Positions 1,152-11,672 of a stretch of DNA of 12,099 nucleotides are shown piece after piece. The notes under the pieces were generated by a model, which saw nothing but the letters and a program-made list of their open reading frames with translations, had not been told where the DNA came from and ran no database searches. The stretch's first letter is position 1, and every line of letters begins with the position of its first letter. The DNA is from Gemmatimonadota bacterium (GTDB lineage: Bacteria > Gemmatimonadota > Gemmatimonadetes > Longimicrobiales > Gaopeijiaceae): NCBI GenBank assembly GCA_039589315.1, contig JBDHHQ010000116.1, positions 1-12,099 on the forward strand, in the 5' to 3' direction. The position numbers and the translations under genes are program-made.

Positions 1152-2561
1152 TCAGATCACCGCCCCCAGGACGGCGAATGCCAGGGTGGCCACGCCCCCC
1201 GCCAGAAGCGCGTACGGCAGCTGCGTTCGGACGTGGTCGATGTGGTCGGTGGCCGCAGCCATGGACGAGATGATGGTGGTGTCGCTGATGGGGGACGAGT
1301 GGTCCCCGAAGATGCCCCCGGACAGCGATGCCGCGACGAAGGGCGCGGCGGGAAGCCCGATGACCCCGGAGAGAGGGACCGCGATGGGGAGCATGATGGC
1401 GAACGTGCCCCAGCTCGACCCGATGGAGAATGCGATGCCCGCGGCGACCAGGAAGATGAGGGGCACGAGCACGAAGTTCGGCACCCTTCCCGCCGTGAGC
1501 TGGGCCACGTAGACGCCGGTACCGAGCTCGTCGGCCACGTTGCCCAGGGCGATGGCCAGGAGGAGGATCAGGGCCAGCGGCACCAGGCCCCCTGCCCCCT
1601 TGAGACCCACCCGCGTGAGCTCGTCGACCGACATGGCCGCCTGGGCCGTCAGCATGATCCACGCCGTGGCCAAGCCCGCCAGGACGGCCCAGAGCACCGA
1701 GGTGGAGCCCGACCCGGCCAGCATGTCGCCGTCACCGGTGACGTAGAGACCCAGGGGCATGGTCAGAACCATCACCAGGATAGGGATGACCATGTTCCGA
1801 GCCCGGGGGTGGACGGACTCGTCCAGCTCGGGCGAGGTCACCGATTCGTCGATCATCGGCTGGGCGCCGGGCCAGTGGAGGGCCCCTTCCCTCGTCCGCG
1901 CCTCCGCCTTCTTCATGGGCCCCACGTCGATCCCCCAGACGACCACCGAGAGGGCCAACAGCACGGCGGCGATGGCGTAGAAGTTCAGCAGGATCGACTG
2001 GAGGAACACCTCGAGGGGGGCATCCACCAGACCCGACAAGATCCCGAGGTTGTACGCGCCCCAGGCGTTCAGGGGGATGAGTATGCAGATCGGCGCCGAG
2101 GTGGAGTCGATCAGGTAGGCCAGCTTCTCCCGCGACGTGCGAAAGCGGTCGAACAGCGGCCGGGCCACGGAGCCGGCCACGAGCACCGTGATGTTGGACT
2201 CGATGAAGACCACCACCCCGATGATCCAGGCCAGCATCTGGGCGCCTCGCGCCGACGTGACCCAGTTGTTCTGCTCGATCCAGTTGACGAACCCGCGCAC
2301 GCCCCCTGCCGCCTCCACCGTGGCGATGAGCGCGCCGATGACCAGCGTGAACAGGATGACCTTGGCGTCGCCGTCGCTGGCGAGGACGGCCACCGTCTCG
2401 TCGATGGCCCGCCACAGGCCCGTGCCCGGGTTCCAGCCGGAGAGGACCGTCCAGCCCAACCAGATCCCGCCGCCCAGGCTCAGGAACACCTGCCGTGTCG
2501 TGATCGCCAGCACGATGGCCAGGATGGGCGGCAACAACGAGATCCAGGTGGGCTCGGTCAT
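1152..2561 (-). CDS. Na+/H+ antiporter NhaC-family membrane transporter (~469 aa)
   Basis: Many hydrophobic helices. Family motifs WISLLPPILAI, SREKLAYLIDSTSAP, GSSWGTF, GDHSSPISDTT and HIDHVRTQLPY. Start moved to ATG 2561, which forms an ATGA overlap with the glycosylase stop (2558-2560). Confidence 0.92.
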   Translation of the reverse strand: MTEPTWISLLPPILAIVLAITTRQVFLSLGGGIWLGWTVLSGWNPGTGLWRAIDETVAVLASDGDAKVILFTLVIGALIATVEAAGGVRGFVNWIEQNNWVTSARGAQMLAWIIGVVVFIESNITVLVAGSVARPLFDRFRTSREKLAYLIDSTSAPICILIPLNAWGAYNLGILSGLVDAPLEVFLQSILLNFYAIAAVLLALSVVVWGIDVGPMKKAEARTREGALHWPGAQPMIDESVTSPELDESVHPRARNMVIPILVMVLTMPLGLYVTGDGDMLAGSGSTSVLWAVLAGLATAWIMLTAQAAMSVDELTRVGLKGAGGLVPLALILLLAIALGNVADELGTGVYVAQLTAGRVPNFVLVPLIFLVAAGIAFSIGSSWGTFAIMLPIAVPLSGVIGLPAAPFVAASLSGGIFGDHSSPISDTTIISSMAAATDHIDHVRTQLPYALLAGGVATLAFAVLGAVI

Positions 2562-3238
2562 GGTGTCTCGACGGGATGTGGGGTCCGGGAAACGGCGGGA
2601 TGCCCCACCACGTGGAACCGGAGCGGCCAGTCCGCGGCATGGCGCACGCCGATGCGGCCGGTGGCGACGACGTCGCGGTCGTCCAGGGGCCACCCGGGCA
2701 GGAGTCTCAGCGGAGCCTGCCGAAGGTCGTGCCCGTTCAGGTCACCGGTGATCCCGAGTGCCTGGCAGAGCCGCCCGGGACCCGAGGCGAGCGGCGAGCG
2801 GCCGCGCCGGTGGGCCATGACGTCGCCACCGACGAGGGGGTCCAGGGCCCGAATCAGGACGGCTGACGGATGGCCCTGGGCGCTCGTCACGACGTTGAGG
2901 CACCAGTGCATGCCGTAGATGAAGTAGACGTACGCGACTCCGGCGGCGGCGAACATGACGTCGTTCCGCTCGGTGCGGCCGATTCGCTCCGCCGCGTGTG
3001 ACGCCGGATCGTGGGGGCCTACGTACGCCTCCGCCTCGACGATGACGCCTTCGGTGTGCCGGCCCCCCACCTCCGACACGATCCGGTGGCCCAGAAGGTC
3101 CCGGGCCACCAGGTCGGCGGCGCGCTCCAGGAAGTTGGGCGGAAACCGCGCGAGGGCGGGAGCCGACGAGCGCCAGGGCCAATCGAACGCTGCGTCGCCA
3201 CGGGCGGCGGCTGGCGCGGAGGCCGGAGGCGTGGGCAC
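2558..3238 (-). CDS. mpg: DNA-3-methyladenine glycosylase (MPG/AAG family)
   Basis: Motifs ARDLLG, IVEAEAY..PHDPASHA (catalytic Glu), AYVYFIYGMHWCLNVVT, AVLIRAL, SGPGRLCQALGI and RIGV. Start uncertain: GTG 3238 chosen as the first start clear of the upstream stop at 3258; the frame is open to 3322. Confidence 0.93.
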   Translation of the reverse strand: MPTPPASAPAAARGDAAFDWPWRSSAPALARFPPNFLERAADLVARDLLGHRIVSEVGGRHTEGVIVEAEAYVGPHDPASHAAERIGRTERNDVMFAAAGVAYVYFIYGMHWCLNVVTSAQGHPSAVLIRALDPLVGGDVMAHRRGRSPLASGPGRLCQALGITGDLNGHDLRQAPLRLLPGWPLDDRDVVATGRIGVRHAADWPLRFHVVGHPAVSRTPHPVETP

Positions 3239-3257
3239 GGACTCGGGAGTGCCCGAC

Positions 3258-5138
3258 TCAGTCGGCGGCCTTGCCCCGTGCGCCCCGACGCGTTCCCCGC
3301 CTGCGCCGCCGGGCACCGTCACCTGCGGGTGCCTCCTCGCGGCCGTCGTCTCTCGAGGCGTCGCCTCCGCGGGCCGGTGTATCGTCGCCGGCCGGCCGGG
3401 ACCCCGTCCCGGAACGACGATCGAAGTCTGCGCGCCACGCGTTGAGGAGCTGCTCCGCCCGCTTGGCCGGTACCAGTGACCCCAGGCGATCCGGGTCGGC
3501 GTGAAGAGTCTGGAAAAGGTCCCTCCCCAGCGCGCTCACGACCGTCTCCGCGGTCTTCTGGCCCACCCCCTTGTACCGGCTCGTGAGGTACCGGACCATC
3601 GCGTCGGGCTCGGAGGGAAGTCCCAGAGCCTTGACGTCGACGGCGCCGGAAGGCGGGCCGGATGAAAGGGGAGCCGAGCGGGACTGGCGACCCGCCACCT
3701 GGCCCTCCAGCAGAGGCGGCGGTCCTTCGCCCTTCTGCTTGCCGCGCTTGGAGCCACGACGCGCTCGCACGCCGCGACCGGACCGCGCCCCCGCCGCCTC
3801 GTCTGCAGGCGGGCCGGCGGCTTCTACCTCTGCTTGCGACGCCTCGTCGGGCTCCACGCGGCGCGCTTCGACGGGCTCCTCGACGGCCTTCCTGGCGCGG
3901 GCCCCTCGCGCGGTCGGCGTCCGGCGAGAGGGCGGCGCCTCCTCTTCCTGGTCGTCCGCGCCCTCCGGCGGCGAGCCCCCCGGCAGGGTCACCTCGAAGT
4001 TGCCCTTGTCCATGCGAGTGAGGGCGACCACCCCTTGCTCGTGGGCCTGGCGCAGGAACCGGCTGAACTTGGGGAACCCGAGCTCGGTCTCGTCGAAGCT
4101 ACCGTCGATCTCGAGCATCTTCCGCTTCACGTCGGAGTCCCGAACGGCGTCCCTGCCGTTGTCCTTGAGCCCGCCGAGGGCGGAGCGGAGCAGGTCGTAC
4201 GCCAATGAAAGCGGATCCTCCGGCGCAGCCGAGGTCTCCGGAGTCCCCGCCGACTCCGTCTGATCCGCCTTTCGTCCGCCCCTTCCTTCCCTCGATCGCC
4301 GGCCCCTCGTCCTCTCCGCCCGCCGCGGCCGTGCCTCCGGGACCTCGCCCGTCCGCAGGCTCGCGCCTCCCGAGGGGCTCACTTCGTATTGGCCGTTCTC
4401 CAGCTTCTTCAGGTTGATGAGGTTTCGGGACGACGCCTCCGCCAGGAACTTGCTGAACTTGGAGAACCCGTAGCTCTTCTCGTCGAACCCGGGGTCGAGC
4501 TCGAGCATGACCTGCTTGAGGCGATCGGAGCGCATCACATCGTCACGCGCCACCATGCGCTCCAAGGCCTGCTCAACCGTGGCCCAGGGGTCGAGAGGCT
4601 GATGCTCCAGGTCGCTGGTCTTCCGGAGTCCCGCCAACGACGTGTAGGAGTAGTACTCGTCGCAGTTCTGTACGAGGATGTCCGAGCTGGACTCCTGGAT
4701 CCCGATGCCGATCACGTACTTCCCGTACTCCTTGAGCTTGAGGACCAAGCTGGAGAAGTCGCTGTCTCCCGTCAGGAGGATGTACGTGCCGATCTCCGGA
4801 CGGATGAAGATGAGCTCCATCCCGTCGATGGCCATACGGATGTCGGTGGCGTTCTTCTTGGAGCTTCCATACGCCGGGGCGAAGATCAGGTCGATCGAAG
4901 CCTCGGAGAGTGGCACGATATACTGCGGATACCTGCGCCAGTCGGCGTAGGCCCGCTGGACCGTGACTTTTCCTTTGATGATGTCGGAGTTGAGGAGGGT
5001 CTTCAGCTCTTTGGCCAGGTCGCTCCTCATTCCCATCGTGACGTTGTCGAAGTCGATGAGGAGGGCAGCGTTGAGCGCATGCGCACCCGGTGCGGTGGCC
5101 CCCTCTACGTGGGGGGCCCGCGAAAACGGTGTGGTCAT
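3258..5138 (-). CDS. NYN-domain (PIN-fold) ribonuclease with two OST-HTH/LOTUS domains and a C-terminal RecD2-like HhH module (~626 aa)
   Basis: NYN motifs LLIDFDN, RAYADW, KKNATDIRMAID, LLTGDSDF and CDEYYSY (~5072-4635). Two LOTUS-type repeats, LDPGFDEKSYGFSKFSKFL (~4592-4377) and IDGSFDETELGFPKFSRFL (~4217-3984). HhH YLTSRYKGVGQKTAETVV (~3620-3426). ATG 5138 preferred over GTG 5201. Confidence 0.9.
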   Translation of the reverse strand: MTTPFSRAPHVEGATAPGAHALNAALLIDFDNVTMGMRSDLAKELKTLLNSDIIKGKVTVQRAYADWRRYPQYIVPLSEASIDLIFAPAYGSSKKNATDIRMAIDGMELIFIRPEIGTYILLTGDSDFSSLVLKLKEYGKYVIGIGIQESSSDILVQNCDEYYSYTSLAGLRKTSDLEHQPLDPWATVEQALERMVARDDVMRSDRLKQVMLELDPGFDEKSYGFSKFSKFLAEASSRNLINLKKLENGQYEVSPSGGASLRTGEVPEARPRRAERTRGRRSREGRGGRKADQTESAGTPETSAAPEDPLSLAYDLLRSALGGLKDNGRDAVRDSDVKRKMLEIDGSFDETELGFPKFSRFLRQAHEQGVVALTRMDKGNFEVTLPGGSPPEGADDQEEEAPPSRRTPTARGARARKAVEEPVEARRVEPDEASQAEVEAAGPPADEAAGARSGRGVRARRGSKRGKQKGEGPPPLLEGQVAGRQSRSAPLSSGPPSGAVDVKALGLPSEPDAMVRYLTSRYKGVGQKTAETVVSALGRDLFQTLHADPDRLGSLVPAKRAEQLLNAWRADFDRRSGTGSRPAGDDTPARGGDASRDDGREEAPAGDGARRRRRGTRRGARGKAAD

Positions 5139-5262
5139 TTCTGTCTTTTTCTCTCGCAGCGAGTCGTGTGTCGTGCCGCGAGACCTCCCCGCCTGCTCCA
5201 CTCCGCCTGACCGCGTACGGTGGGTGCGAATGTGGAGCGGGCCGGGGTGGCCTCCAGCTATG

Positions 5263-6864
5263 CTATGGCCGACGGGCCTGGTGCTCGGCCTGAATCATGC
5301 GGGCGAGCTCGACTCGTCGGACCTTGCCTGTCCCCGTGCGGGGGAACGCGTCCAGGAAGCGGGTCAGATCGGGGACCTTGTAGTCCGCGAGCGTCATCCG
5401 GCACCACTCCTGAATCTCCGGGCCGGTGACGATGGCTCCTTCCAGAGGCACGATACAGGCACAGATGGCCTCGCCCAGAACCTCGTCCGGGACGCCGACC
5501 ACGACGGCCTCGTCGACCGCCGGGTGGGACTGGAGGCGATCCTCCACTTCCCGGGGGTGGACGTTGAAGCCGCCCCGGATAATAACGGTCTTTCTCCTAC
5601 CCACCAAATGGAGAAAGCCCTCTTCGTCCACCATGCCCAGGTCTCCCGTGAGGAAGAACCCGTCCGCGCTGAAGGCCCGGCTGGTCTCGACGGGCTGGCG
5701 GTAGTACCCGACCATGAGCCCCGGTCCCTTCACCGCGATCTCTCCCACGCTCTCGACCGGAAGCTCCGTGCCGTCGCTCTCCAGGACACGAACCTCGCTC
5801 CCGCGAAGTGGCCGCCCCACGGTGAAACGAACCTTGTCGTCGGGATCGTCCGGGGAAGTGACGGACACCGTCGATCCGGTCTCGGTCAGGGAGTAGGCGA
5901 TCAAGAAATCCGGGCACAATCGCTCCCGGACGCCCTGCACGAGGCTGTCGCTCACGGGAGCGCCGGCGGCGACCCCGAGGCGCAGGCTCGAAACGTCGGA
6001 GCTCACGGTGTCCAATGCCTTGAGCTCGGTGACGAAGAGGGTCGGCACGCCGTACTGGACCGATGCCCCGTGACGCTCGATGAGCTCGAGGGTGGCCACG
6101 GCGTCGAATCCGTCCTGGAGGATCAGTGATGCACCGGCCACGAGTGCCCCCAGGACGCCCGGTCCCAGGCCGAAGACGTGGAAGAGCGCGTTCACCCCGA
6201 TGATCCGATCCTCGGGCAAGAGGCCCACCGCCTCCGCGGTGGCGGCGGCGACCTTGAGCAGACTGTCATGTGAGAGCTCCACACCCTTGGGTTTCCCGGT
6301 GGTCCCGGAGGTGTAGAGGATGGTGAAGACCGTATCGGCAGGCTCGAAAGGCGGCACGTCGTAGCTCCGGCCCGCGCCCGCCGAAAGCGCGTCCTCGAAC
6401 TGGAAGATCCGATCGTCGTACCAGAGATCCTCTTCCCCCACCGTGACCAGGTACTGGAGCTCGGGCAGTTGCGGGATGAGGTCCTCGAAGAGCTGCAGGT
6501 AGTCCACCCCGTCCAGGGTCTCGATGCAGACCGTGGCCACCGCTTCCGAGTGCCGGAGCATGTACTGGAGCTCCGGCACGGTGAGGCGCGGGTTCAGCGG
6601 GACGATCACGGCGCCGAGCTTGGCGGCCGCGAACATGGCGACGACGAACTCGGGACGGGCCGGCAGGATCAGCGCGATCCGATCTCCTGCCTCGATTCCC
6701 AGGTTGGCCAGGTGGGCGGCGAGAGATTCGGACTGGCTCTCCAGCTGCCCGAATGTCAGGACCTCGTCGTCGAAGAGAACGAAGGGTGCTTCGGGATCGG
6801 TCGTGGCGCGGATGGCGAGGGCACCGGCCACCGTCATTCCTGCAGTGCGCTGTAGGAGCGCCAT
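5263..6864 (-). CDS. Class I adenylate-forming enzyme (acyl-CoA ligase, FadD-like; 533 aa)
   Basis: P-loop ILYTSGTTGKPKGV, plus LFHVFG, AYSLTETG, FLTGDLG, GRRKTVIIRGGFNVHPREVE and catalytic Lys in PRTGTGKV. RBS GAGGTG just before the ATG. Substrate not determinable from sequence. Confidence 0.93.
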   Translation of the reverse strand: MALLQRTAGMTVAGALAIRATTDPEAPFVLFDDEVLTFGQLESQSESLAAHLANLGIEAGDRIALILPARPEFVVAMFAAAKLGAVIVPLNPRLTVPELQYMLRHSEAVATVCIETLDGVDYLQLFEDLIPQLPELQYLVTVGEEDLWYDDRIFQFEDALSAGAGRSYDVPPFEPADTVFTILYTSGTTGKPKGVELSHDSLLKVAAATAEAVGLLPEDRIIGVNALFHVFGLGPGVLGALVAGASLILQDGFDAVATLELIERHGASVQYGVPTLFVTELKALDTVSSDVSSLRLGVAAGAPVSDSLVQGVRERLCPDFLIAYSLTETGSTVSVTSPDDPDDKVRFTVGRPLRGSEVRVLESDGTELPVESVGEIAVKGPGLMVGYYRQPVETSRAFSADGFFLTGDLGMVDEEGFLHLVGRRKTVIIRGGFNVHPREVEDRLQSHPAVDEAVVVGVPDEVLGEAICACIVPLEGAIVTGPEIQEWCRMTLADYKVPDLTRFLDAFPRTGTGKVRRVELARMIQAEHQARRP

Positions 6865-6899
6865 CTCACCTCGTGGCAGGGGATTCGACGTGCGCCCGC

Positions 6900-6928
6900 A
6901 AGATAGAGGCGGGCCTCACCGGCGTCAA
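6900..6928 (-). promoter_or_regulatory. Putative sigma70 promoter for the acyl-CoA ligase (and possibly the NYN-mpg-NhaC genes)
   Basis: Minus strand TTGACG (6928-6923), exactly 17 nt, then TATCTT (6905-6900); about 35 nt upstream of the ATG. Confidence 0.72.
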
Positions 6929-6946
6929 CGCGAGGGCGGAGCGGTA

Positions 6947-6971
6947 TAAATGGCTGATTTGCATTGGGTTA
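6947..6971. promoter_or_regulatory. 25-bp spaced palindrome TAA-N5-TG-N5-CA-N5-TTA, candidate protein-binding site
   Basis: TAA ATGGC TG ATTTG CA TTGGG TTA is an AT-rich patch in GC-rich DNA, 18 nt upstream of the -35. Its TTA end is the aroB stop codon. Confidence 0.4.
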
Positions 6972-8123
6972 GGGACGAACGTCAGACGGGGTTAGAACGG
7001 CTCGCACCGCCGGTTCGGGAACGGCGTGGGTCCAGAGCTCCCCTGCAGACACGGCGCCCATCTTCTCCAGCAGCACGAAGCGGGGAGCACCGCTGCGCGA
7101 TTTCTTGTCTCGAGCCACGAAGCCTAGGACGGCCTCTGCGTCCAGGTCCGTCGGCATTCCGGTGGGCATGTCGAGTCGCCTGGCGATCGCGGCGAGCCGC
7201 TCCGCGGCACCGGGCTCGGTGACACCCAGGCGTTCCCCCAGGGTGGCCTCCAGGATCATGCCCAGCGCCACGGCCTGACCGTGTCGGATGCGGAAGCCCG
7301 AAGCGGCCTCCACGCCGTGGCCGAGCGTATGCCCGAAGTTCAGGACCTGACGGAGCCCGCCTTCCCGTTCATCGGCACCCACGACCCTGGCCTTGAGGCG
7401 CACCGAGCCCTGAACCACGCGTTCCACGGCCTCGGCGTCACCCGCCAGCACGCCGTCGAGGTCGGCCTCCACCGTCGCGAGGTAGGCCGGGTCGAGGATG
7501 GCACCGTGCTTCACCGCCTCCACCAACCCGTCGGCCCGAGCCCACCGGGGGAGGGTGGAGATCACGGCCGGGTCGGTCACGACCATCAACGGCGGATGGA
7601 AAGCCCCCACCAGGTTCTTGCCCGCCGGCGCGTCCACGCCGGTCTTGCCACCCACCGAAGCGTCCACCATGGCGAGGAGAGACGTGGGCACCTGCACCAG
7701 TGGAACACCGCGCATGAAGGTCGCCGCAACGAACCCCGCCAGGTCTCCCGTGACACCTCCCCCAACGGCGACGACCAGGGTGTCGCGCCCGCAGCCGTCG
7801 TCCAGGAGCGCGTCGGTGAGGCGCGCCCACTCGGCGCGGTTCTTGGACGACTCGCCGGGAGGAAACGTGAAGAGCGAAGCGCGGCGCCCACTGCCTACGA
7901 GCCGGGACGTGACCTTCGATCCGTAGAGCGCACCCACGGTGTCGTCGGAGATGACCGCGCACCGGTGCCCTTGTTGCGGATCCAGCAGCCCGGCCAGCTC
8001 GGCCAGCAGGCCGCGCCCGACCAGCACCGGATAACGGTGACCCCCGGCGTCTACGTCGATACGCCGGTGCCGCGGGCTTCCATCCTCACTCGTGCTGTTC
8101 GCCGCGCCCCCGTCGGAGGTCAA
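6969..8123 (-). CDS. aroB: 3-dehydroquinate synthase (384 aa, TTG start)
   Basis: Motifs GESSKN, GGGVTGDLAGFVAATFMRG, PTSLLAMVDASVGGKTG, KNLVGAFH, EAVKHG, LNFGHTLGHGVE, HGQAV and DKK. GGAG RBS; TTGA overlap with the upstream stop. Confidence 0.96.
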   Translation of the reverse strand: MTSDGGAANSTSEDGSPRHRRIDVDAGGHRYPVLVGRGLLAELAGLLDPQQGHRCAVISDDTVGALYGSKVTSRLVGSGRRASLFTFPPGESSKNRAEWARLTDALLDDGCGRDTLVVAVGGGVTGDLAGFVAATFMRGVPLVQVPTSLLAMVDASVGGKTGVDAPAGKNLVGAFHPPLMVVTDPAVISTLPRWARADGLVEAVKHGAILDPAYLATVEADLDGVLAGDAEAVERVVQGSVRLKARVVGADEREGGLRQVLNFGHTLGHGVEAASGFRIRHGQAVALGMILEATLGERLGVTEPGAAERLAAIARRLDMPTGMPTDLDAEAVLGFVARDKKSRSGAPRFVLLEKMGAVSAGELWTHAVPEPAVRAVLTPSDVRP

Positions 8124-9334
8124 GGGACTCCACCGGTGAGCCGCACTCGCACCTCCGGCGCGGGGCCCACGGTGAGCACCGCGGCCGCACGGTCCATGAC
8201 GCCGAGGGGTTCGAGCGTGGCGGGGCCGCCGAGGCCCCCGAGGCCCCGGGACAGCGTGGCGACGAAGCGGTCCCTGGCCGCCTCGTCGTCCCAGACGCTG
8301 ACCCAGACCAGGGAACGCTCACCGCCGGCTTCGAAGAGCGCGTATCGATCTCCATCCCACCCGGAGCGGGCCGCCCGCGCTGCGGGCCCGCCATGGGCTT
8401 CGAGCAGGATGCCGGTCTCGAGCGCCCCCAGGGTGTTCTGGTACACGACCGCGCCGTCGCCCGTGGGCTCCAACCCCACCTCGGTGGGCCGGTCCGGTGG
8501 CTCGCTCAGGAGGCGCGTGGGCTCCAGAATCTGCTCCGTGGACTCGGGCAGTCGGTCCCCGAAGGGTGCGGGGCGGTCCGGCGCGCTCTGCCATACCGCC
8601 TGGACGAACGCGGCGCCCTCCAGGTAGGGAAACAGGAGGGACTCCTGAACGATGGCCGGCGCCGACGCCAGCGCTGGGAACTGCGTGCGCATCATCTCCA
8701 GCGCCGGCCTGATGGTGCTGGAGAAGTCGGGGACCGCCGCCAGGTCCAACGGGAGCCCCTGGGCCCCCATGAGGTACTCGAACATGACCAGGGTGGCGTG
8801 GCCCTCGATGGCCGACTGTGCGGCGAGCTGACGGTCGTTCCCCCGCTCCTTGGCCGTGATCGAATCCAGATCCGTGGCCTGATCTTGCACCGCGTGGACC
8901 AGCTCGTGCACGAGCACGGTCTCGGTCGTGGCCTCGGGCTGGTCGTCCATGACGAAGAGGGTCGCTGCCGCCGGATCGTAGAACCCGGCCACCTGCTCCC
9001 CGTAGACGGAGAGCAGCAGCGTCCTCAGGTCCAGATCGGGGGGGACCAGGCCCAGCAGGGCGTAAGCGTCTCTCAGCGACTCCGCCTCGTCCGGGGGAAG
9101 CTCCTCATCCAGCTTCTCCATGAGAAACGCCTCGAGCTCGTCGCGACTTCTGCGCTCGACCCGAACGGGCGCGGCCAGGTCCAGGCTGGACCGGTCGGCC
9201 AGCTCCGGAAGAAGCCGCGAGGCTTGCCGGGCCAGTGCCGGATCGGACGATTCGACCAGGGCGGTCGCCGCATCCTGTTGAGCGCTGCACGCGCTGACGA
9301 GCAGCAACGAAGCGGTGGCGAGCGTGGGAATCAA
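8120..9334 (-). CDS. Putative lipoprotein zinc metallopeptidase, HEXXH plus downstream Glu (~404 aa, TTG start)
   Basis: TTG 9334 has a GGAGG RBS and a TTGA overlap with the folK stop. Lipobox-like LLLVSA-C16; VAGFYDP; HELVHAVQDQ (HELVH at 8908-8894); AIEGHA 30 aa later; FPYLEGAAF; PESTEQIL; GWDGDRY. Confidence 0.8.
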   Translation of the reverse strand: MIPTLATASLLLVSACSAQQDAATALVESSDPALARQASRLLPELADRSSLDLAAPVRVERRSRDELEAFLMEKLDEELPPDEAESLRDAYALLGLVPPDLDLRTLLLSVYGEQVAGFYDPAAATLFVMDDQPEATTETVLVHELVHAVQDQATDLDSITAKERGNDRQLAAQSAIEGHATLVMFEYLMGAQGLPLDLAAVPDFSSTIRPALEMMRTQFPALASAPAIVQESLLFPYLEGAAFVQAVWQSAPDRPAPFGDRLPESTEQILEPTRLLSEPPDRPTEVGLEPTGDGAVVYQNTLGALETGILLEAHGGPAARAARSGWDGDRYALFEAGGERSLVWVSVWDDEAARDRFVATLSRGLGGLGGPATLEPLGVMDRAAAVLTVGPAPEVRVRLTGGVP

Positions 9335-9873
9335 AGCGCGTCCTCCAATGCCGATGGGTCGGCGAAGCGGCGAAGACCGGAAGCGGCGACACCCGCGCAT
9401 ACCGCGTGGACGGGTTGGCCCGTGCTCGGGTCGACGAGGTCCGGGGCCACCTCCATGAGGGGCACGCAGACGAACGCCCGGCGGGACCAACGCGGGTGGG
9501 GAACGACCAGGTCGCGGGTTCGAATCATGAGACTACCGTAGAAGATCAGGTCAAGGTCCAACGTGCGGGGGCCCCGGGAGACCGTGCGTCGCCGTCCGGC
9601 TCGCCGCTCCGCGCTCATGAGGACGGCTAGCAGATCCTCGGGCGTGAGCCGTGTTGTCCCGCAGACCACCGCGTTCAGGAAGTCCGGCTGCTCCAGATAG
9701 TCCGCCGGCTCGGACTCGTACACCGAGGACACGCGTTCGACCCGTACGGGTCCGGACACTGCCTCGAGGCCCGACCGGAGGTGGTCCAGCCGGTCTCCCA
9801 CGTTCGACCCCATCGCCACGACGACGCGCGCATCAGGCTCCTCGCCCCCGTCACGCCTGGTCCGCGCCGTCAC
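9331..9873 (-). CDS. folK: 2-amino-4-hydroxy-6-hydroxymethyldihydropteridine diphosphokinase (HPPK)
   Basis: Motifs VAMGSNVGD, SSVYESEP, QPDFLNAV, ERRAGRRR, GPRTLDLDLIFY, LVVPHPR and RAFVCVPL. Start uncertain; GTG 9873 overlaps the cupin 3' end by 23 nt. Confidence 0.95.
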   Translation of the reverse strand: MTARTRRDGGEEPDARVVVAMGSNVGDRLDHLRSGLEAVSGPVRVERVSSVYESEPADYLEQPDFLNAVVCGTTRLTPEDLLAVLMSAERRAGRRRTVSRGPRTLDLDLIFYGSLMIRTRDLVVPHPRWSRRAFVCVPLMEVAPDLVDPSTGQPVHAVCAGVAASGLRRFADPSALEDAL

Positions 9874-10298: not shown

Positions 10299-11465
10299 TC
10301 AGTTCCTGTACAGCTTCGCTGCTGCCCGGTCGAGAATGTAGAGGCGCCCGGCCCGGACCAGAAGGTCACCCGAGAAGTCGGGCTCCCGGACCACGCCCAG
10401 CTTGACGGGTGTACCCTGGCCATCGAAGTCGTAGACGAAGACGCCCTGAGCGCCCGCCGCCACGTATACGCGGCGGTGCAAGGCCGCGGCATCGTACGCG
10501 AAGTCCATGCCGGTGAGCACGTGCTGGATGGCGAGGGACCGGGGGTCGGACACGTCCACCATCGCCGCGCCGGCGTCGCCCATGGCGATCGTTGCCAGTG
10601 GCCCCGCCAGATTGATGGCCACCGCTCGCCCGGGCAATTCGAGCCGACCCAGCTCCGACAGATCTCCCGGGCTCCGCGCCACGAGGCTCGAGTCCTCCAG
10701 CGTCCAGAGCACGTTGCCCCCGGGCGCAAGGCGCAGGGAGGGAGCCAGTCCGACCGTGGACACCGACGTTCCTTCTCGGACCGATGGCGCCAGCGCCGAT
10801 CCAGTCAGCTCCAGGCGTCGAATGCTCCCAGGCTGCGCCACGGCCAGGGCGCCACCCCGTAGCGTCTCCAACGACGCGGCCCCGGTCGACGCGATGGGTA
10901 CCGGTTCCTCGACCGCGCCCGGAATCGGGACCCCTACGAGCTGGTCGCTCGACGCGAGAAGCAAGAGTCGGCCCTCCATGCCGACCGCAGCGGCGCGGGC
11001 CGGAAAGCCGCCGAGGATCCTCTCGGCCGTCAATGCGTCGTCGACGAAGAACACCCAATCCCGCGTCAGCGCGTACACGCCGTCCTCGGCCTCTCGCAGC
11101 CTGTTGGGCGTCTCGGCCAGATCCACCGAGGAGAGCTCCAGCTCCACGGTGGGCCCCTCCAACGCCCGCCGCACCGCCTTCTTGTCCAGCTCGGACCCCA
11201 GCAGGTATCCCAACCCCGCACCCAGGAGAGAGCCCAACGCCACCACACAGCCGGTGGTGTCGCATACGCCTGTCCGGGACTGCTCGCCGGCTTGGTCGGT
11301 GAAGGTGGCCGCGCCGCCCAGAATCAGCGCGCCGGTCGCGGCCCCTGCCCACCGGCGCCAGCGGCTCGGCACGTCCTCCTGCTCGACCGACTGGGCCAGC
11401 AGCGTGCCGGGTTGGAGGAGAACGGTCAGGACCAGGGCCCGCACGAGGCCCGTTCGGAAGGTCAT
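10299..11465 (-). CDS. Secreted protein with a glycine-zipper-like hairpin and an LVIVD-like beta-propeller (~388 aa)
   Basis: ATG 11465 with GGAG RBS. Signal peptide MTFRTGLVRALVLTVLLQPGTLLA-Q; two Gly-rich hydrophobic segments around CDTTGC; LVIVD-like repeats AMGDAGAAMVDVSDP and VYVAAGAQGVFVYDFDGQGTP. Confidence 0.72.
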   Translation of the reverse strand: MTFRTGLVRALVLTVLLQPGTLLAQSVEQEDVPSRWRRWAGAATGALILGGAATFTDQAGEQSRTGVCDTTGCVVALGSLLGAGLGYLLGSELDKKAVRRALEGPTVELELSSVDLAETPNRLREAEDGVYALTRDWVFFVDDALTAERILGGFPARAAAVGMEGRLLLLASSDQLVGVPIPGAVEEPVPIASTGAASLETLRGGALAVAQPGSIRRLELTGSALAPSVREGTSVSTVGLAPSLRLAPGGNVLWTLEDSSLVARSPGDLSELGRLELPGRAVAINLAGPLATIAMGDAGAAMVDVSDPRSLAIQHVLTGMDFAYDAAALHRRVYVAAGAQGVFVYDFDGQGTPVKLGVVREPDFSGDLLVRAGRLYILDRAAAKLYRN

Positions 11466-11632
11466 TCGCTGATCTCCAGGGTCACGATCTCCTGTGCAAT
11501 CGGTTCGGCGCTCCCCAACGGCGGCCACGGACCCTTCTCGATCGCTTGGGTCCTCTCTTGGCATCCCTCGGAAGCCCCAATCGATACGTGGCACGACCGT
11601 TGGCCGCGCCGACCACAAAGGAAGTTCAGCCC

Positions 11633-11672
11633 AAAGAGCGGCGCCCGCCACCCGCATGGGGCGACGGGCGCC
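11633..11672 (-). terminator. Probable intrinsic terminator
   Basis: Minus strand GGCGCCCGTCGCCC-CATGC-GGGTGGCGGGCGCC, a 14-bp stem whose two G-U pairs form only on this strand, followed by GCTCTTT; 22 nt after the stop at 11695. The U-tract is weak. Confidence 0.65.

Follow-up and report, generated by a model that had tools for sequence, protein, structure and literature searches.

We found that the 12,099-nucleotide stretch of Gemmatimonadota DNA analysed here (the window, from genome G000) encodes a protein, P0001, in which an NYN nuclease domain is followed by two LOTUS (OST-HTH) domains and, at the C-terminus, a helix-hairpin-helix (HhH) domain. By its domain content, P0001 is a member of the NYN.COG1432 plus OST-HTH (LK-nuclease/LOTUS) family, with lineage-specific variation. 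We suggest, at a probability of roughly one half, that it is a housekeeping, metal-dependent single-stranded RNA (ssRNA) endoribonuclease of the class Gemmatimonadetes. It would resemble DNE1 and MARF1, carry the one-hairpin HhH as an accessory module, and regulate its own synthesis through an mRNA leader. The contextual evidence, namely the structured leader and the RNase complement of the class, points to RNA metabolism.

Domain architecture of P0001

The four modules had been proposed in a first-pass annotation of the locus, and Pfam, NCBIfam and AlphaFold agree on them (Table 1). The start methionine is shared by the homologues of P0001. Separately, an alternative GTG start at 5201 lies within the RNA leader of the gene.

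Table 1. Features of the P0001 locus, in window coordinates
Feature	Position	Strand	Remarks
NYN-LOTUS-LOTUS-HhH protein gene (P0001)	3258..5138	-	ATG 5138, stop 3258; 626 aa
NYN (LabA/DUF88, COG1432) nuclease domain	4623..5072	-	aa 23-172; D29, N32, D66, D99, D125, D127
LOTUS/OST-HTH 1, minimal type	4371..4592	-	aa 183-256
Disordered Arg/Gly-rich linker 1	4218..4370	-	aa 257-307; pLDDT <50 and composition
LOTUS/OST-HTH 2, minimal type	3981..4217	-	aa 308-386
Disordered linker 2	3633..3980	-	aa 387-502; conserved short motif at aa ~452-482
Pseudo-(HhH)2 domain	3405..3632	-	aa 503-578; homologous to first RecD2 HhH pair
Disordered C-terminal tail	3261..3404	-	aa 579-626; ends in Arg/Gly-rich patch
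Conserved structured 5' leader	5131..5258	-	folding, covariation; single copy in genome
mpg (3-methyladenine DNA glycosylase, PF02245)	2558..3238	-	probable GTG start 19 nt past NYN gene stop
Acyl-CoA ligase (FadD-like), upstream, conserved neighbour	5263..6864	-	context only

The NYN domain was matched over aa 24 to 164 (Pfam E = 3.4e-24; 86.5 bits against a cut-off of 24.2). The complete acidic set that the first-pass annotation had read here was borne out: the IDFDN, ATD and GDSDF motifs are all found, and the four catalytic aspartates that are required in MARF1 (PMC6217404) correspond, by motif and strand position, to D29, D66, D99 and D125. N32 and D127 are also present. Of 102 complete orthologues, 101 retain all four catalytic motifs, and the structure matches of the domain include VPA0982 and the MARF1 NYN domain. 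The OST-HTH domain was found twice, with an E value of 9.3e-12 over the whole protein and of 4e-7 and 4e-5 singly; the two copies score 30.2 and 24.0 bits, at or above the cut-off of 23.8. Both are of the minimal type in the AlphaFold model, ending at the beta wing with no extra helix after it.

The four modules are joined by disordered linkers that account for about 215 of the 626 residues and are rich in Arg, Gly and Pro. The conserved motif in linker 2 has the consensus LGPRRGSxRRR...PPPLLEGQ, and its profile matched 52 of the 73 complete named loci. AlphaFold gave pLDDT values above 90 for LOTUS1, LOTUS2 and the C-terminal domain and below 50 for the linkers. The NYN region was poorly modelled because its alignment barely varies. 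It has low confidence in the full-length model (pTM 0.32), and therefore no inter-domain docking can be read from that model, with which a fold search gave no match at E ≤ 0.001.

As the first-pass annotation had stated, bacterial proteins that combine NYN with one or two OST-HTH domains have been described before (PMC2848206; PMC5499597). In these sources, bacterial LK-nuclease (NYN.COG1432/DUF88) proteins with OST-HTH domains are predicted standalone RNA-degrading enzymes, sporadic and laterally spread. They share with P0001 the N-terminal NYN domain and the duplicated OST-HTH. The P0001 subfamily, in contrast, is class-wide, vertically inherited, more conserved than RecA, and longer by virtue of its disordered linkers. 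The HhH and structured leader of one P0001 clade are not noted for such proteins in the available parts of Anantharaman et al. (2010, PMC2848206) and Matelska et al. (2017, PMC5499597). Among the entries listed in the 2017 supplement of PMC5499597 is one Gemmatimonadetes protein with NYN, OST-HTH and OST-HTH, without an HhH. The literature covered, which takes in few subscription papers, yielded no description of a bacterial NYN-LOTUS-HhH protein, in agreement with the earlier impression that the four-module architecture had not been characterised. It also yielded nothing on a Gemmatimonad NYN gene with an RNA motif.

Among eukaryotic proteins, Arabidopsis DNE1 has the same NYN and two-LOTUS core as P0001 (PMC10226599), and both DNE1 and animal MARF1/limkain-b1 share with it the four catalytic aspartates of the NYN domain and minimal LOTUS domains. 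These are proven or inferred ssRNA endoribonucleases, whereas the activity of P0001 is predicted from sequence. They also differ from P0001 in being tied to decapping factors and lacking an HhH, and MARF1 has RRMs.

The HhH domain, RecD2 and the neighbouring mpg gene

The C-terminal domain gave an HHH_5 match at aa 523 to 569 that was under the gathering score (E = 3e-4), and aa 507 to 571 matched positions 68 to 135 of the NCBIfam RecD2 model TIGR01448 (E = 5e-7). When aligned by hhalign with six RecD2 N-terminal segments, it matched over 65 columns with a probability of 98.9 (E = 1.7e-17). These columns belong to the first HhH pair of RecD2, an SF1B helicase, and hold the shared pattern P-x-T/D...YL...GhGxKTA...FG...P...W. 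RecD2 was also the best non-family match of the HhH profile in the phylum search and among annotated plasmid matches. An Atlas search ranked it the same way, although its scores of about 0.8 make this a lead only. Thus the RecD2-type kinship proposed in the first-pass annotation stood, but its assignment to HHH_4 (PF14490) was rejected: the matching part of RecD2 is its HHH_5 unit (about residues 91 to 140), and the PF14490 unit (about 141 to 231) follows it. OB_YrrC, HHH_RecD2 (PF14490) and the SF1B helicase domains, all found in true RecD2, were absent from P0001.

The first hairpin, YKGVGxKTA, is kept, with GhGxx[T/S]A in 333 of the 340 distinct HhH copies. The second GhG hairpin is lost (0 of 333 scored copies); it is shortened by about two residues and shows a two-residue gap against RecD2. 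P0001 is neither a RecD2 nor a canonical (HhH)2 protein. The phosphate-binding hairpin shows no variation at G524, G526 or T529 in an alignment of 73 sequences. A conserved face that is specific to the family (L505, L507, P508, W568, D571, R574, R575) is distant from that hairpin in sequence. The median net charge of the 340 copies is -1. FAAP24 has the same layout, a canonical hairpin and a second one without two residues, and it binds duplex DNA weakly, with micromolar affinity, through hairpin 1 (PMC3711432). The pseudo-(HhH)2 domains of FAAP24 and XPF also lie C-terminal to a nuclease-fold domain. However, those proteins are rigidly coupled, dimerising, ERCC4-fold DNA-repair factors, whereas in P0001 the HhH and a PIN-like RNase lie more than 300 residues apart, with flexible linkers in between.

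The AlphaFold model of the domain has five helices and a mean pLDDT of 96. The top Foldseek rows were RuvA, LigA and XPF, all with E > 0.5, and none reached E ≤ 0.001. The best VIA-align rows were SAM and the NusA AR (Z 7.1, rmsd 2.5 to 3.5), tied with HhH proteins at Z 6.0 to 6.7. Searches with this predicted structure confirm an HhH/SAM-type helical fold, and they do not separate DNA-binding relatives (RuvA, XPF, LigA) from protein- or RNA-binding ones (SAM, NusA AR). The SAM and NusA AR rows and the conserved face away from the hairpin would suit a protein-interaction or oligomerisation module that binds no nucleic acid, comparable to SAM, NusA AR or the XPF/ERCC1 dimer domain. We consider this very unlikely. 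The invariant glycines and threonine of the phosphate-binding hairpin are not needed for pure protein interaction, and common helical arrangements give Z values of about 7 as well.

The gene order aroB - fadD - NYN - mpg - nhaC - etfB is widely conserved. When loci that end too early are left out, mpg starts at most 300 nt from the NYN stop in 68 of 72 named loci, 13 of 13 loci of families f2, f3, f6 and f7, and 13 of 16 HhH-less loci. As a synteny control, we took 400 kb from each of two HhH-less genomes, and 21 of 31 (G121) and 49 of 77 (G193) adjacent same-strand orthologue pairs were also adjacent in G000; the NYN locus is included and contributes at most 2 pairs. We therefore rejected mpg as a sign of a repair operon: the adjacency is real, but it is at background level and independent of the HhH.

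These data bear on the earlier proposal that the HhH could anchor the RNase on the nucleoid, at R-loops or at damaged DNA. In that case, the enzyme might clear RNA that is nascent or hybridised, perhaps with the MPG encoded next to it. By kinship, the HhH stands closest to RecD2 DNA helicases, the canonical DNA-backbone hairpin is retained, and the top Foldseek rows are DNA-binding proteins. The closeness of mpg also favours a tether, and human MPG generates abasic sites in RNA in a way that is coupled to R-loops (PMC7456069). However, the second hairpin is gone, the net charge is near neutral, and the fold is also SAM- and NusA-AR-like. Moreover, mpg adjoins the NYN gene without the HhH too, and no more often than ordinary pairs are kept; the remaining neighbours (fadD, aroB, nhaC, etfB) are metabolic; and LOTUS domains showed no preference for DNA G-quadruplexes (PMC7498356). 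With the HhH also missing from sister-family orthologues, as described below, tethering to DNA or R-loops is possible and plausible, but we rate it as unlikely.

Distribution and descent

The named homologues of P0001 are from Gemmatimonadota, mostly Longimicrobiales, which we therefore regard as the order of the host. In a stricter first look the gene was carried by 60 of 61 relatives. Across 301 genomes of the phylum that are at least 90% complete, including the unpublished G208, 291 had an NYN match. The NYN-LOTUS core is typically single-copy across the class Gemmatimonadetes, with one copy in G000.

The HhH profile, by comparison, matched all 83 genomes of families f1, f2, f3, f6 and f7, and elsewhere 1 of 125 in f4, 1 of 71 in f5, 0 of 3 in f8 and 0 of 3 in f9. 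We inspected 20 of the profile matches. All 13 from the f1/f2/f3/f6/f7 group were fused to NYN-LOTUS-LOTUS. The f4 and f5 matches and four of the nine in f10 were RecD2 helicases, and one of the two in f12 was a DNA polymerase I. The fusion is therefore common to the relatives, as the first-pass annotation had supposed. Of 80 named loci, 73 are complete and 72 of these have the HhH; the exception contains a run of Ns and a frame change. No stand-alone HhH family appeared among the best 150 profile matches, which were all full-length members or apparent fragments, with some 1800 weaker matches besides. A short-protein search with the profile gave 5 matches.

Orthologues from f4, f5 and f8, which we infer to be Gemmatimonadales, lack the HhH. 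Among 18 such proteins, 16 of them complete, all have NYN and LOTUS1, most have a degenerate LOTUS2, and the Arg/Gly/Pro-rich linkers are similar. The HhH was absent from all 16 complete ones, and therefore the core function appears to be independent of it. About two thirds of the class sample belongs to these sister families. In a quick tree of NYN plus LOTUS1 (56 rows), all 37 HhH rows fell on one side of a branch with an SH-aLRT of 89, and distant outgroups, on a very long branch, attached among the HhH-less rows. This topology would be compatible with a single gain of the HhH.

RecD2 was found in none of the 83 genomes with the fusion. Above the cut-off it was present in 9 of 9 f10 genomes and in only 2 of 196 f4/f5 genomes, where 13 more had partial RecD-like matches. 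Because a RecD2-like domain sits in genomes where RecD2 was not found, the HhH looks like a relic of, or capture from, recD2, a gene absent from most of the class.

Other origins and roles were rejected. As to a mobile origin, the only matches in plasmid and phage records were distant NYN proteins (<37%) and, for the HhH, sequences that were RecD-like or unannotated. As to transfer to Gammaproteobacteria, the two records so titled (L117, L118) share the gene order of the family and branch within it, and we deemed the title unreliable. An anti-phage defence or toxin-antitoxin role is at odds with 0 PADLOC families and a gene that is class-wide, syntenic and conserved.

The structured leader and RNA metabolism of the class

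The 124-nt gap upstream of the NYN gene out-folded 200 of 200 shuffles (z -3.46). It contains a long hairpin, P1 (arms 5254-5244 and 5190-5180), and a second hairpin, P2 (arms 5182-5175 and 5160-5153). Over 44 aligned loci, 90.5% of cells in P1 and P2 are paired and 11 of 20 pairs have changed on both sides. None of 500 shuffles paired as highly and slid controls gave 42 to 59%, although the structure was drawn from the same 44 sequences, whose kinship makes the shuffle test too favourable. A UCU segment is shared between alternatives, pairing with the P1 5' arm in 39 to 43 of 44 loci or with the P2 3' arm in 40 to 44 of 44. In the window sequence the two competing forms differ by 2.7 kcal/mol. 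P2 mostly ends 5 to 17 nt ahead of the start codon, and the leader thus reaches the ribosome-binding region.

A model of the leader matched once in G000, in 23 of the 36 named loci that were held out and have upstream DNA, in 5 of 13 loci of f2, f3, f6 and f7 (E < 0.01), and in 0 of 18 loci of the sister families f4, f5 and f8. It matched 22 genomes of the 101-genome class sample, in some of them away from the NYN gene. One sub-lineage has wholly lost the leader spacer (8 upstream regions inspected). Therefore, the leader is real and clade-restricted, not universal. Rfam gave no match to it at E ≤ 1 across the window. Its reading as an intrinsic terminator was rejected, as there is no terminator-like site there on the coding strand. 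Since in E. coli the mRNAs of rne, pnp and rnc mediate autoregulation of these genes (PMC3997798), we infer that the NYN gene may do the same.

G000 has RNase Y and one short RNase E/G, elsewhere in the genome (a 531-aa ORF with PF10150 and no long tail). RNase J was found neither in G000 nor in any of the 101 class genomes. RNase E/G matched in 299 of the 301 phylum genomes, singly in all but one, with open frames of 472 to 823 aa among the 150 matches listed; other classes of the phylum likewise have a short form. This complement leaves room for another disorder-scaffolded RNase, without requiring one. RNase E itself has a catalytic N-terminus, an Arg-rich disordered region with a conserved microdomain and a structured leader on its own mRNA, as does P0001, by analogy only. 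The catalytic folds are unrelated, and P0001 has no RNase E/G domain. RNase E also has partners, a membrane anchor and an autoregulatory 5' UTR, whereas for P0001 autoregulation is a proposal.

Compared between G000 and five genomes of the class, the NYN domain is 76 to 83% identical, against 72 to 76% for RecA and 57 to 65% for RNase E/G, one catalytic domain being set here against whole proteins. Conservation above that of RecA is typical of proteins with one conserved ribonucleoprotein partner. It would suit a nuclease dedicated to maturation and quality control, either associated with the ribosome or acting on stable RNA. Such an enzyme would process rRNA or tRNA, or cleave in a translation-dependent manner, and its HhH would hold on to a ribosomal protein or to a helix of the rRNA. 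In support, tRNA/rRNA processing has been proposed for bacterial NYN domains (PMC5499597), the Synechocystis NYN-OST-HTH proteins Slr1870 and Slr0650 co-purified with Rbp3 and ribosomes (PMC12232666), and RNase J was not found. However, no rRNA, tRNA or ribosomal gene was among the conserved neighbours tested, and the linkers are long and variable (497 to 1043 aa from the NYN start), as would be expected of a flexible scavenger more than of a docked maturase. We regard such a dedicated nuclease as an unlikely reading, but the extreme NYN conservation by itself is just as compatible with a single substrate, ribosome or tRNA.

We instead favour the housekeeping ssRNA endoribonuclease. In this scenario, the LOTUS domains and Arg-rich linkers would capture RNA, G-rich or structured, and present its single-stranded stretches to the NYN site; one of two bacterial LOTUS domains tested bound an RNA G-quadruplex (PMC7498356). 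The linkers may serve as a scaffold like RNase E's C-terminal half, which is absent from the RNase E/G of the class. The enzyme would bind or cut its leader, where the two hairpins compete beside the ribosome-binding region, and so curb its own synthesis. The HhH, probably captured once from a recD2 gene, would keep one phosphate-backbone-binding hairpin as an accessory, low-affinity, sequence-independent grip on a long tether. Its ligand may be a nucleic-acid duplex or junction, in RNA stems, hybrids or DNA, and it would not be the function-defining part of the enzyme.

Several observations weigh against this endoribonuclease model. The retention of the HhH throughout its clade and the invariant hairpin residues indicate real selection, which may outweigh the term "accessory". 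RNase Y in G000, and a short RNase E/G that is common in other phyla, mean that no role is obviously vacant. The leader has disappeared from one sub-lineage, is unmatched in 13 held-out named loci and was not detected in the sister-family loci.

A broader picture, which we think decidedly unlikely as a whole, is that the class uses a MARF1/DNE1-like NYN-LOTUS enzyme, rather than an RNase E tail or RNase J, as an autoregulated, disorder-scaffolded RNA-decay centre, a bacterial counterpart of P-body and nuage nucleases. One branch would then have salvaged an HhH from the RecD2 it lacks, anchoring the RNase at the nucleoid and clearing nascent or R-looped RNA with co-transcribed MPG.

The prediction that bacterial NYN-LOTUS proteins are RNases dates from 2010, and no activity or substrate is reported for them in the literature covered. 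The naturally occurring orthologues with and without the HhH lend themselves to asking if this helicase-derived domain turns an RNase towards DNA or hybrids. Should the HhH turn out to be a minor accessory, it would be a case of lineage-specific domain accretion, of moderate interest. An environmentally widespread class, in which no RNase J and no long RNase E were found, keeps NYN-LOTUS above RecA-level conservation, in one clade with a structured leader. Therefore, the class is a good entry point for the function of bacterial NYN-LOTUS proteins, and for a possible different RNA-decay hub.

An RNA leader in the fadD-NYN spacer

The spacer between fadD and the gene for the NYN-LOTUS-LOTUS-HhH protein contains an RNA leader of two hairpins (see the table). 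Comparison of the leader with Rfam gave no match, and we consider it a candidate new cis-regulatory motif. In one sub-lineage the spacer has shrunk and now measures at most a few tens of bases. The leader is lost there, and all four domains of the NYN protein are retained.

Features in the window and in homologous loci
Feature	Position	Strand	Description
Two-hairpin RNA leader, unannotated	5131-5258	-	Conserved; covariation; segment shared for strand exchange
Short linear motif in disordered linker of NYN protein	3693-3785 (aa ~452-482)	-	Conserved; basic RRGS-type patch, then PPPxxEGQ
Lipoprotein-like protein	8120-9490	-	HELVH zinc-metallopeptidase motif; weak Hvo_1808 family match
Secreted or membrane protein	10299-11657	-	Glycine-zipper-like segments
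ORF truncated by contig end	11695-12099	-	
Spacer-collapsed, leader-less sub-lineage	L132, L139, L141, L142, L146, L148, L152, L154, positions 5780-5960		

The protein family and its genomic setting

Orthologues from families f2 and f3 (L042, L050-L052) carry PPxLPGQ repeats related to the linker motif, and HhH-less orthologues have a PP..LLxxGVV-like variant. Records L117 and L118 (5,800-8,000) are titled Gammaproteobacteria. They have the NYN gene in the Longimicrobiales gene order, fall inside the family tree of the protein, and are probably mislabelled or mis-binned.

In the class Gemmatimonadetes sample, RNase E/G is short (L073:1057-2652), RNase J was found in 0/101, and full RecD2 is almost absent; in the phylum's family f10, by contrast, 9/9 carry RecD2.

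Other reading frames

The lipoprotein-like protein scored 94 bits against the archaeal Hvo_1808 surface-protein family, under the cut-off of 200, and its gene is kept upstream of aroB in 45 of the 80 named loci. The secreted or membrane protein has repeats that we take to be probably beta-propeller, LVIVD-like; a Pfam search gave nothing over the cut-off, and none of the 80 named loci was found to encode the protein. The truncated ORF matched nothing in Pfam or NCBIfam and has homologues in four of those loci.

Promoter and transcript

A sigma-70-like promoter match lies directly upstream of fadD at 6900-6928 (-), with 9/12 matches (0.2 expected). Because it is the sole such match within 2400-7100, the sequence suggests that fadD, NYN and mpg may share one transcript.
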